Shown here in pieces: positions 155 through 6,668 of a stretch of DNA of 55,697 nucleotides. Where the stretch lies: NCBI GenBank assembly GCA_021158105.1, contig JAGGVH010000039.1:1-55697 (forward strand), given 5' to 3'. Under the pieces are notes generated by a model. The model saw nothing but the letters and a program-made list of their open reading frames with translations. It made no database searches and was not told the DNA's origin. The DNA is from Candidatus Micrarchaeota archaeon. Its GTDB lineage: Archaea; Micrarchaeota; Micrarchaeia; Anstonellales; JAGGVH01. Both the position numbers and the translations under genes were made by a program. How positions within the stretch are numbered: the first letter of the stretch is position 1; each line of letters starts with the position of its first letter.

Positions 155-421
155 ATGAAGGAAATAAAAGGTCGCATAATAAACTATCGCGGTGGCAAAA
201 AAACTCAATACAACAACCAGATGATTATTGAACCAGAAGGTGTTAAGTTAAGAGATGATGCATCTAAACTTCTGGGCAAGAAAGTCATATGGAAAAATTC
301 TAAGACGCAAATGACTGGTAAGATCACAAGAGTACACGGTAAAAAGGGTTGTGTAGTAGCAAGTTTTGAACCGTCCCTCCCGGGCCAAGCAATAGGGACT
401 GAGGTGACAATTATTGTATAA
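155..421 (+). CDS. rpl35ae: 50S ribosomal protein L35Ae
   Basis: G.I.NYRGGKKTQYNNQMII...GKITRVHGKKG.V.A.F...LPGQAIG signature; ATG at 155 follows a GAGGTGA RBS (the track start at 98 is too long). Confidence 0.95.
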   Translation: MKEIKGRIINYRGGKKTQYNNQMIIEPEGVKLRDDASKLLGKKVIWKNSKTQMTGKITRVHGKKGCVVASFEPSLPGQAIGTEVTIIV

Positions 422-809
422 ATATTTGGAGCACACTGCAGACATTTTGATTGAAGCGCATGGAAAAACATTTGAAGAGGCAATCGAAGAAGCTGCAAGG
501 GCAATGTTCAACGTGATTGGCAACGCAGAACCTAAAATAAAAAAGAATATTCATTCTGAAGCGCCAACAAAGGAGCAACTTGTTGTTTATTTCCTGTCAG
601 ATTTGTTAACAGAGATGGAGATTGACAACATCGTATTTTCTGATGTCAAAATTCAAAAGGTTGAACACAACAAGAATTGGGAGATTAACGCTATTGTCAT
701 GGGCGACCATGTTCTTCCAACAGACCAGGTCAAAGCTGTAACTCATCACATGCTAGAGATTAAAAAAGAAAAGAATGAATGGGTTATACGAGTATTGTTA
801 GACGTTTAA
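414..809 (+). CDS. Archease (RtcB ligase cofactor)
   Basis: N-terminal YLEHTADI motif and C-terminal VKAVTHH...RVLLDV motif. Confidence 0.93.
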   Translation: MYKYLEHTADILIEAHGKTFEEAIEEAARAMFNVIGNAEPKIKKNIHSEAPTKEQLVVYFLSDLLTEMEIDNIVFSDVKIQKVEHNKNWEINAIVMGDHVLPTDQVKAVTHHMLEIKKEKNEWVIRVLLDV

Positions 810-4303: not shown

Positions 4304-4622
4304 TTGCAGGAGGAGCAATGGCCTTTGCTGCAACTTCACCTGTCGGTTGTCCTACTCATCAGCTCAGGCCTGTGGCTTGGCGACACGCCGATACACAGCT
4401 TAGGGCTGCTCCTTTGCCGGCTCTGCTGGCAGATTTTGCATGTGTACCATGCAAAGCTTCCGGCCTGACCCGGTTCACTGTGCACGACGTCCGTCAAGGC
4501 AGACCGTCAACGCCTTTGAATAGGGCCAAACAGACAAAGCGCAACGCAGACCATCTTCGGCCCCGCCTAAAGGGGATTTGCGGGAATGGAGACCCCTGGC
4601 CCCCGGCCTATCCTCCTGCAAT
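4303..4622 (-). ncRNA. ffs: Archaeal SRP (7S) RNA with a 45-nt insertion in helix 8
   Basis: 12-bp terminal helix ATTGCAGGAGGA/TCCTCCTGCAAT; Alu-domain motifs TAGGCCGGGGG and GCGGGGCCGAAG; GTGAACCGGGTCAGGCCGGA...AGGAGCAGCCC helix 8; upstream TTTAAAAA box near 4642-4649. Confidence 0.92.
4414..4458 (-). other. Putative BHB-type intron in SRP RNA helix 8
   Basis: GCCG/CGGC 4-bp central helix, 3-nt bulges GAA and AAA, inner helix GCTTT/AGAGC; canonical cleavage positions give ...CAGGCCGGAAGGAGCAG... Confidence 0.7.
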
Positions 4623-4671
4623 ATAACTTTGCAATTTATCATTTTTAAACCTTATGGCTTTATGTTATCAT

Positions 4672-5261: not shown

Positions 5262-6668
5262 ATGTATGGCGGGTATACTTATGTAGAACTGAAATATAAG
5301 CCGTCAAAGGATGACTTTATAGTTCTCTTATGGGTTAAAGGCAAAAATAAGATTGAAAAGATTGCTGAAGCGGTTGCCGCAGAAAGTTCAGTGGGCACAT
5401 GGACAAAACTCAGTACAATGAATGACATTGTATTCAAAAATTATCGTGCCCGTGTTTTCAAAATAATCAAGGTTACAAAAAGTTCAGGGTTTATTTATAT
5501 TGCTTATCCATATGAACATTTTGATTCAAAGAACATATTACAGTTTCAGGCCAGTGTCATGGGCAACATATTCGGAATGAAAGAGGTTGACGAATTATAC
5601 ATAATGGACATATCATTCCCTGAGAAGTATCAGAAACAGTTTAAGGGTCCAAAGAATGGTATTGAAGGCATCAGAAAATATGTAGGAACATTAAAAAGCC
5701 GGCGTCCGCACATTGGCACGATTGTCAAACCCAAGGTGGGGTTAACACCTAAAGAGTTTGCAAATGTCGCATACGACGCATGGAGCAATGGACTGGACCT
5801 TGTCAAAGATGACGAGAACCTGGTCGACCAGAAATTTTGTCCGTGGAAGAAGCGGTTTAATGAAGTAACCAAAAAGATGGACAAGGCAGAAAATGAAACC
5901 GGTGAGAAGAAGTTGTATGCCACAAACATTACTGACTCGTCAATCGACCGTATGATTGAACGGTTGGACTATGTTAGGGAGCACGGGCAGAGGATGGTAA
6001 TGTTAGATGTTTATGTCATGGGACTTGCAGCATTGCATGAAATGATTAAGCACACACGAAAGTATAACATATTTGTCCATGCCCACAGGGCAGGGTATGC
6101 TGCACATAACAGAGGAATGTTTGGTGTAAACTTTCAGGTTTATGAGAAATTTTATAGGATAATAGGTGTTGACCAGCTTCACATTGGCACGGGCGTGGGC
6201 AAGATGGAAGGGTCGGCATTGTACGTTAAACGGTTGCACGACATTGCGATAAAAAACAAGGGAGAAGAAAAGTTTTATCTGGGCTCATTAAAGTTCACGT
6301 TTGCCAAACATATTAAACCGTTGTTCCCAGTATCATCGGGCGGGCTTGACCCTGGCATGGTCGATGCTTTGATTGAATTGTTCGGGAAAGATATAGTCAT
6401 ACAGGCAGGCGGAGGTGTGCACGGGCATCCAAACGGTACTGGTGCAGGCGCAAGGGCGTTACGTTATGCTGTTGATTGTGCAATGAAACACATCCCGCTT
6501 CCAAAGGCATCAGAAAAAAATAATGACCTTAAACTTGCACTTAAAAAGTTTGGATATGCTGACCCGAAAGACATTAAAAATGTATTAAAATATGAAAAGA
6601 ACAACAAACAAAAATTAACAAGAGAGGTTAAGATTGGCGGGTTGGCAGAATACCAAAGGATAGTTTAA
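5262..6668 (+). CDS. rbcL: RuBisCO large subunit, form III / III-like
   Basis: AAESSVGTW, GNIFG, VKPKVGL, VKDDEN, HAHRAG, LHIGT..GKMEG, SSGG, QAGGGVHGHP: catalytic residue set present. Confidence 0.95.
   Translation: MYGGYTYVELKYKPSKDDFIVLLWVKGKNKIEKIAEAVAAESSVGTWTKLSTMNDIVFKNYRARVFKIIKVTKSSGFIYIAYPYEHFDSKNILQFQASVMGNIFGMKEVDELYIMDISFPEKYQKQFKGPKNGIEGIRKYVGTLKSRRPHIGTIVKPKVGLTPKEFANVAYDAWSNGLDLVKDDENLVDQKFCPWKKRFNEVTKKMDKAENETGEKKLYATNITDSSIDRMIERLDYVREHGQRMVMLDVYVMGLAALHEMIKHTRKYNIFVHAHRAGYAAHNRGMFGVNFQVYEKFYRIIGVDQLHIGTGVGKMEGSALYVKRLHDIAIKNKGEEKFYLGSLKFTFAKHIKPLFPVSSGGLDPGMVDALIELFGKDIVIQAGGGVHGHPNGTGAGARALRYAVDCAMKHIPLPKASEKNNDLKLALKKFGYADPKDIKNVLKYEKNNKQKLTREVKIGGLAEYQRIV

Follow-up and report, generated by a model that had tools for sequence, protein, structure and literature searches.

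A putative bulge-helix-bulge intron in helix 8 of the SRP RNA gene of a Micrarchaeota archaeon

The SRP RNA gene and its surroundings

The window, that is, the whole stretch of DNA that was analysed, comprises 55,697 nucleotides of contig JAGGVH010000039.1 from Candidatus Micrarchaeota archaeon, the genome of which (GCA_021158105.1, referred to as G000) is a metagenome-assembled draft of 0.96 Mb with 36% G+C, consisting of 50 contigs and 89% complete. The sole structured RNA recognised by Rfam in the window is an SRP RNA on the minus strand at 4307-4618, which is also the single SRP RNA match in the whole genome; weak Rfam matches to sR35 and Six3os1 in the window were rejected as chance. The gene, its predicted parts and the archease gene encoded in the same window are as follows:

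414-809 (+): archease, the RtcB ligase cofactor (Pfam PF01951, E 3.6e-34, full length)
4307-4618 (-): SRP RNA gene, 312 nt with the insert described below and 267 nt without it (Rfam Archaea_SRP)
4459-4618 (-): predicted exon 1, RNA positions 1-160, with the 3' end ...GGGUCAGGCCGGA (from the bulge-helix-bulge geometry and the same-genus alignment)
4307-4413 (-): predicted exon 2, 107 nt, with the 5' start AGGAGCAGCCC...
4642-4649 (-): TTTAAAAA, likely an archaeal TATA box, located some 27 nt upstream of the RNA's 5' end (read from sequence)

The Archaea_SRP model of Rfam (RF01857) matches 4307-4618 over its full length (model positions 1-317) with 92.9 bits and an E-value of 1e-21, and both the helix-8 CAGG/AGCA loop and the Alu-domain motifs, by which membership of RF01857 is judged, are present. 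This score lies below the curated Archaea_SRP cut-off of 96.5 bits, and the gene exceeds a curated threshold solely under the related bacterial large-SRP model of Rfam. The sub-threshold score is lineage-wide, since two uninterrupted SRP RNA genes of the same genus reach 81.8 and 89.7 bits with Archaea_SRP. The gene is collinear with model positions 1-317, i.e., it does not have the organization of a permuted gene, and in the Rfam alignment helix 6 is absent. SRP RNAs of the order are about 260 nt long without helix 6, with 1 nt in place of 40 model positions, and helix 6 is kept in some families of the class, the SRP RNA of which is about 300 nt long. These SRP RNAs of about 300 nt were considered as intron cases and rejected, as helix 6 is retained in them and their helix 8 is normal.

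On the opposite strand, a 102-aa open reading frame at 4318-4626 (+) runs antisense to the SRP RNA gene. It has no Pfam match and is almost certainly spurious, and gene callers may annotate it instead of the RNA. Downstream of the SRP RNA gene lies a gene for the large subunit of RuBisCO at 5262-6668 (+) of the window (Pfam PF00016 and PF02788), which is flanked by genes encoding an HD-domain protein and an MscS-type channel.

A previous reading of this DNA, made from its sequence only, had placed an intron in helix 8 of the SRP RNA. When the archaeal SRP model is run on the gene with the insert in place, the excess nucleotides of the full-length match do fall at the helix-8 apex, which has 49 nt vs. 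6 in the Rfam model. The comparison set consisted of SRP RNA genes from 176 species in the order and from some 400 in the class. Almost all of those in the order are 258-280 nt long, and the genes of two species of the same genus (G001 and G002) measure 268 and 267 nt, respectively, vs. 312 nt in G000. Aligned to the G000 gene, they leave one clean 45-nt gap, located at the tetraloop, and the remainder of the gene is conserved outside the insert. The 35 genomes of the order in which no SRP RNA had been matched went through a second search with relaxed filters, which returned a few normal-length or partial matches and no new intron.

Geometry of the 45-nt insert

Positions 4471-4403 of the minus strand read GGGTCAG-GCCG-GAA-GCTTT-(28 nt)-AGAGC-CGGC-AAA-GGAGCAGCCC, and the GGAA tetraloop of helix 8 is split by the insert at 4414-4458. 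The elements of a motif of the bulge-helix-bulge (BHB) kind can be assigned as follows:

4414-4458 (-): putative 45-nt BHB-type intron AGCUUUGCAUGGUACACAUGCAAAAUCUGCCAGCAGAGCCGGCAA (clean 45-nt gap against G001 and G002; likeness to tRNA introns)
4461-4464 (-): central BHB helix, 5' strand GCCG (exon), pairing with 4416-4419 in 4 of 4 standard pairs
4416-4419 (-): central BHB helix, 3' strand CGGC (intron)
4458-4460 (-): 5' bulge GAA, three bases left unpaired between central and inner helix; predicted cut 4459/4458
4413-4415 (-): 3' bulge AAA, not closed by an outer helix; predicted cut 4414/4413
4451-4457 (-): inner helix, 5' strand GCUUUGC, pairing with 4420-4426 in 7 bp that include one G.U
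4420-4426 (-): inner helix, 3' strand GCAGAGC, stacked on the central helix without a gap

The sequence-only reading had described this segment in much the same terms, and every feature that it named lies at the coordinates it gave. For the inner helix, which it gave as GCTTT/AGAGC, the pairing holds and the length does not, as the helix has 7 bp, two more than claimed.

The insert thus described has a 4-bp central helix and two 3-nt bulges, each located 3' of its own helix strand. The rule of a cut after the second base of a bulge is derived from the canonical pre-tRNA intron at 37/38, the bulge topology of which is given by the tRNA numbering, and the bulge topology of the insert matches that of this canonical intron. 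On the RNA, the predicted cuts are after base 160 for the 5' site (4459/4458) and after base 205 for the 3' site (4414/4413). The strict hBHBh' form, with flanking helices on both sides, is not what is found, as the inner helix has 7 bp and the outer one 0, with G.G and A.G oppositions in place of Watson-Crick pairs. What is present is the relaxed form, HBh' or bulge-helix-loop, in agreement with the earlier description of the outer helix as non-canonical.

Excision of 4414-4458 in silico joins the exons as GGGUCAGGCCGGA|AGGAGCAGCCC and gives the consensus CAGG-CC-GGAA-GG-AGCA. The proposal that the second-bulge-base rule removes 45 nt and restores the CAGG/AGCA loop with its GGAA is thereby borne out, and the product matches the uninterrupted relatives. 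Neighbouring cut pairs with the same product have no BHB structure, and the pair chosen by the rule is the sole one that combines BHB geometry with restoration of the consensus. A 4-bp helix with an inner helix of 5 bp or more in this register occurs at a frequency of 2.6e-4 among 497,502 site pairs in SRP RNAs of the order, and shuffled inserts have such a motif at a consensus-restoring cut pair in 12 cases out of 200,000; the BHB motif at 4414-4458 exceeds chance.

In the order, a helix-8 pattern matches 46 SRP RNA genes, a set that includes one gene which is itself interrupted (G137, see below). CAGG-CC-GGAA-GG-AGCA is present in 37 of them, and the remaining matches are the covarying variants CC-GAAA-GG, UC-GGAA-GA, UC-GAAA-GA and UU-GAAA-AA. 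In this order, helix 8 normally ends in a GNRA loop on an apical stem of 2 bp, and the 2-bp stem of the spliced RNA, which had been entered as a caveat against the intron, does not count against it.

The BHB fold of helix 8 in G000 has a local free energy of -23.0 vs. -24.1 kcal/mol for the minimum, a gap of 1.1 kcal/mol, and the central helix GCCG/CGGC has an ensemble probability of 0.57. At the minimum, the predicted structure is a long, imperfect hairpin and not the BHB, and the fold of the full-length SRP RNA likewise favours an alternative pairing. The hairpin would suit a different explanation of the insert, namely that the mature SRP RNA keeps the 45 nt and helix 8 is extended in this lineage, which is weighed below together with the inserts of other species. 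No C/D-box or other small-RNA content was seen in 4414-4458.

Related inserts in SRP RNA and tRNA genes

Inserts at the same helix-8 site are present in two further species of the order, each from another family: G156 (JAWCKZ010000017) and G006 (JAGGTN010000057). The insert of G156 is also 45 nt long, with ends identical to those in G000 (5' end GCUUUG, 3' end UGCCAGCAGAGCCGGCAA) and a different interior, while that of G006 has 53 nt and an unrelated, A-rich interior. Their central helices are GCCG/CGGC or GCCG/CGGU, their bulges are GAU and AAA, and their inner helices have 6 bp (G156) and 11 bp (G006). The sequence-only reading had looked to the SRP RNA genes of relatives for presence or absence of the insert and for the persistence of its helix and bulges. 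Their alignment agrees with an intron on both counts, the insert being absent in G001 and G002, and the same-site inserts of G156 and G006 keeping the 4-bp helix and the 3-nt bulges.

We also searched a collection of genomes from 185,579 species with the helix-8 pattern allowing gaps of 8-24, 25-55, and 56-86 nt, and found only G006, G156 and bacterial chance matches. A scan of the same collection for the 3' junction again found G006 and G156 and no others, and the exact site pattern occurs in three species only among about 185,000. Two scans of metagenome contigs gave no genuine example; one was empty, and the other returned three chance matches in coding sequence.

Besides the helix-8 tip, BHB inserts are found at other sites in three SRP RNA genes of the order. 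G137 has a 20-nt insert in the AGCA side of the SRP54-binding loop (GAAG/CUUC; locus L036), G135 has a 38-nt insert in the conserved Alu-domain loop GCAAA^UCC (locus L035), and G017 has a 35-nt insert in helix 5 with a 12-bp inner helix (locus L034). Removal of these inserts restores the conserved sequence and the length of the relatives, i.e., of the genus for G135 and G017 and of the family for G137. In G156, G006, G137, G135, and G017, the fold of lowest energy is the BHB core. Two other inserts were tried as BHB candidates and rejected, with no fit at the consensus-restoring sites: one of 40 nt in helix 3/4 of G071 (L032) and one of 54 nt in helix 5 of G066 (L033). Both look like structured GNRA hairpins, and the insert of G066 consists of two hairpins with GNRA loops (GCAA and GCGA).

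The 3' 18 nt of the G000 intron, with up to 2 mismatches, have 34 matches in the order vs. 5 for the reversed control. Seven of the 34 lie in the D-loop of tRNA-Val genes, in the context GUCG-AA^U...CGGC or CGAC-AA^U-GG, and six of these fit the BHB test, with inserts of 40-45 nt, inner helices of 5-9 bp and an outer helix of 0 bp. ARAGORN recognises no tRNA in any of the seven unspliced tRNA-Val sequences; after removal of the insert at the BHB sites, an intact tRNA-Val (UAC, GAC, or CAC) is recognised in five of the six tested. A further match is a 45-nt member at position 37/38 of a tRNA with the anticodon CGC (tRNA-Ala), which scores 50 bits with the Rfam tRNA model. In ungapped comparison, the SRP intron at 4414-4458 shares 34 of its 45 bases with the tRNA-Ala intron and 32 of 45 with a tRNA-Val intron, both from related genomes. 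Among the new lines of evidence, this likeness to tRNA introns weighs most.

In an alignment of ten family members (A1), 96% of the cells in the central and inner helices pair vs. 31-48% in slid controls, and for the central helix the figure is 95%. Compensatory changes are present at two pairs of the inner helix (GCUUUG/CAAAGC, GCUCUG/CAGAGC, and GCCCUG/CAGGGC), and the exon base of the second central-helix pair covaries with the intron, forming U.G or U-A in tRNA and C-G in SRP RNA. The intron-side strand of the central helix is CGGC or CGAC across the family in tRNA and SRP RNA (CGGU in G006), and AA^N at the 3' bulge is conserved in all family members. Judged by this homology and by the pairing and compensatory pairs in the family alignment, the insert at 4414-4458 belongs to a confirmed family of tRNA introns. 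The host sites are alike as well (GCCGGA^AGG in SRP RNA and GUCGAA^UGG in tRNA-Val) and share the motif GYCGRA^WGG, a likeness that would fit transposition into a site able to form the central helix, or survival of only such insertions.

No other members of the family were found in the G000 genome by BLAST and fuzzy searches, and for the G006 intron, matches to possible relatives were no more frequent than those of the control. Two loci in other genomes, L096 (G064:C26:7209-7226) and L101 (G031:C10:405-422), carry the 3' motif of the family as TGCCGGCAGAGCCGGCAA or with GGG, in a conserved and hairpin-rich context. They are recognised by neither Rfam nor ARAGORN and may represent another interrupted RNA gene. 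In G000, the genes for tRNA-Val(UAC) (C30:19831-20027) and tRNA-Val(CAC) (C39:608-806) carry A+T-rich inserts of about 125 nt, long introns of the canonical kind, in the anticodon loop, and the two inserts are nearly identical to each other.

We consider it very likely that the insert at 4414-4458 is a relaxed BHB intron that is spliced out of helix 8 of the SRP RNA. A retained extension of helix 8 can draw on the non-BHB inserts with GNRA hairpins in the SRP RNAs of G066 and G071, in addition to the hairpin fold of G000 itself, but it would remove a GNRA tetraloop that is found in all 46 matches of the helix-8 pattern. Further, the insert is missing in both same-genus species and in five of the six species of G156's genus, and the three same-site inserts keep the exact BHB geometry, one of them with an unrelated interior. 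An extension of this kind is, in our judgement, improbable.

Splicing machinery, origin of the intron and known systems

The sole splicing endonuclease (EndA) of G000 is encoded by an open reading frame of 379 aa on contig C23. It aligns with the EndA of ARMAN-2 (PDB 4FZ2) over residues 5-387 with an E-value of 1.5e-98, and the key residues named for the ARMAN-2 enzyme (PMC3488258) are conserved in the alignment, namely the catalytic Y236, H251, and K282 and K161 of the ARMAN-specific loop (GTYK). By this alignment, EndA of G000 is of the epsilon2 (ARMAN-2) type, as the sequence-only reading had guessed, and enzymes of this type cleave relaxed BHB and bulge-helix-loop substrates (PMC3239211, PMC3488258, PMC12397907). 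The type is defined by a single chain of three units and about 390 aa, to which the 379 aa of the G000 protein correspond. A full-length copy of EndA is present in all eight genomes of the order that were tested, with or without SRP introns.

The ligase RtcB is also encoded in G000, at C30:14051-16735, outside the window. Its Pfam match is in two pieces (profile positions 1-50 and 44-426), which are about 1.36 kb apart within one open frame of 940 aa, and the gene probably contains an intein of about 450 aa. The archease gene, which had been pointed out as a neighbour of the SRP RNA gene, is indeed found at 414-809 (+) as a PF01951 match. We found no evidence that the two genes are linked, and their closeness is probably a coincidence. 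Splicing is a heavily used pathway in this genome, since ARAGORN detects 20 interrupted tRNA genes vs. 3 uninterrupted ones. At the intron calls of ARAGORN, strict BHB motifs are mostly not found; its boundaries are unreliable for non-canonical introns.

From the geometry of the insert, the restored consensus, the homology to tRNA introns and the presence of the enzyme genes, we infer that the SRP RNA precursor is cut and ligated. In the precursor, GCCG of the exon would pair with CGGC of the intron, with the 7-bp intron helix stacked on top, and this pairing would present the GAA and AAA bulges to the dimeric epsilon2 EndA. The enzyme would then cut after the second base of each bulge (4459/4458 and 4414/4413), and cutting at the 3' site would depend on the broad specificity of the epsilon2 type, because no outer helix closes the 3' bulge. 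RtcB, aided by archease, would join the exons at CAGGCCGGA|AGGAGCAG to form CAGG-CC-GGAA-GG-AGCA, i.e., the SRP54-binding loop with its tetraloop. The excised 45-nt intron would probably be circularised, with a predicted back-splice junction ...GCCGGCAA|AGCUUUGC....

Cutting might also take place without ligation, in which case the SRP RNA would consist of two pieces held together by the pairing of helix 5 and helix 8. Other systems do have stable RNAs that are fragmented, and the cut sites lie in a terminal loop, where the halves would remain base-paired. We regard this as less likely still than a retained extension, considering that RtcB and archease are both encoded and that products of archaeal EndA are normally ligated. 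The tetraloop that ligation recreates is conserved across the order, and the equivalent helix-8 ends are ligated in Thermoproteus (PMC4731332). The least credible explanation is an artefact or a decaying gene, i.e., a mis-assembly in this draft of 50 contigs and 89% completeness or an inactivating insertion in a pseudogene, given that the same 45-nt architecture occurs at the same site in the independent G156, from another study and family, and that the interrupted gene is the only SRP RNA gene of the genome, with its remainder conserved.

As for the origin of the putative intron, its family also occupies the D-loop of tRNA-Val genes and the anticodon loop of tRNA-Ala genes in related Micrarchaeia, and for this reason it most likely reached the SRP RNA gene by transposition, probably from a tRNA gene, a direction and a mechanism that we infer. 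The target GCCGGA^AGG resembles the intron's tRNA site GUCGAA^UGG. A broader scheme, which we put forward tentatively and with some doubt, would have the BHB introns of Micrarchaeia mobile between unrelated RNA genes. One family would have moved among tRNA-Val, tRNA-Ala, and SRP RNA genes via GYCGRA^WGG sites where the exon pairs with CGRC of the intron, and the SRP RNA genes of the order would carry such introns at at least four sites. In this scheme, introns would have landed repeatedly at the helix-8 tip in different archaeal phyla, and the genes described here would represent a simple-intron stage before permuted SRP RNA genes such as those of Thermoproteus.

If the intron is spliced, some DPANN archaea would need their tRNA-splicing enzymes to make an essential and universally conserved RNA of protein targeting. 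The likeness to tRNA introns also offers a concrete and testable example of introns that move between different classes of RNA genes, and the target motif is recognisable. For genome annotation, the inserts push SRP RNA genes and D-loop-interrupted tRNA genes under the thresholds in use, and such genes may be reported missing.

Known hosts of BHB introns are tRNA, rRNA and a few mRNAs. A full-text literature search returned no account of an SRP RNA gene with a simple intron, the closest case being the permuted SRP RNA of Thermoproteus. The evidence points to a known type of intron and a known enzyme that is predicted to act on a new host RNA, and to one intron family common to tRNA and SRP RNA genes. 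The introns of archaeal rRNA genes and of the cbf5 pre-mRNA of Crenarchaeota are likewise BHB introns on which the tRNA-splicing machinery acts in non-tRNA substrates. Unlike the rRNA introns, which are often long and may encode homing endonucleases, the SRP intron is 45 nt long and non-coding. Transposition of introns among tRNA genes was reportedly described in a 2010 study (Mol Biol Evol 27:2233). Similarly, related introns are found here at the tRNA-Val D-loop, at tRNA-Ala 37/38, and in SRP RNA helix 8, with the difference that this family is also present in a non-tRNA gene and that its targets share GYCGRA^WGG.

Non-canonical pre-tRNA introns are processed by the epsilon2 EndA of Candidatus Micrarchaeum ARMAN-2 and by the (alpha-beta)2 EndA of Thermoproteales (PMC3239211, PMC3488258, PMC12397907). 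Like these, the SRP inserts have a 4-bp helix, 3-nt bulges and the same predicted cut rule, and they are 20-53 nt long and non-coding. The genome also encodes the type of enzyme found in ARMAN-2, and the G000 intron has 32-34 of 45 bases in common with tRNA-Val and tRNA-Ala introns of related genomes. Unlike in pre-tRNA, the host here is the SRP RNA, in which the helix-8 tetraloop beside the SRP54-binding loop is split.

In Thermoproteus tenax and T. uzoniensis, the SRP RNA is permuted and circularised, and the ends of its gene lie at the helix-8 tip (Plagens et al., 2015; PMC4731332). Its precursor is cleaved by the tRNA-splicing endonuclease at a BHB and then circularised, and the authors proposed simple BHB introns in the ancestor of the permuted genes (PMC4731332). 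As in Thermoproteus, the BHB site in G000 is at the tip of helix 8, and ligation is predicted to recreate the apical loop. Unlike in Thermoproteus, the gene is collinear, the BHB is formed by exon and intron instead of leader and trailer, a linear mature RNA is expected, the lineage is Micrarchaeia (DPANN), and the enzyme is of the epsilon2 type. The G000 locus and its relatives would be the form of SRP RNA gene with a simple BHB intron that the Thermoproteus authors proposed.
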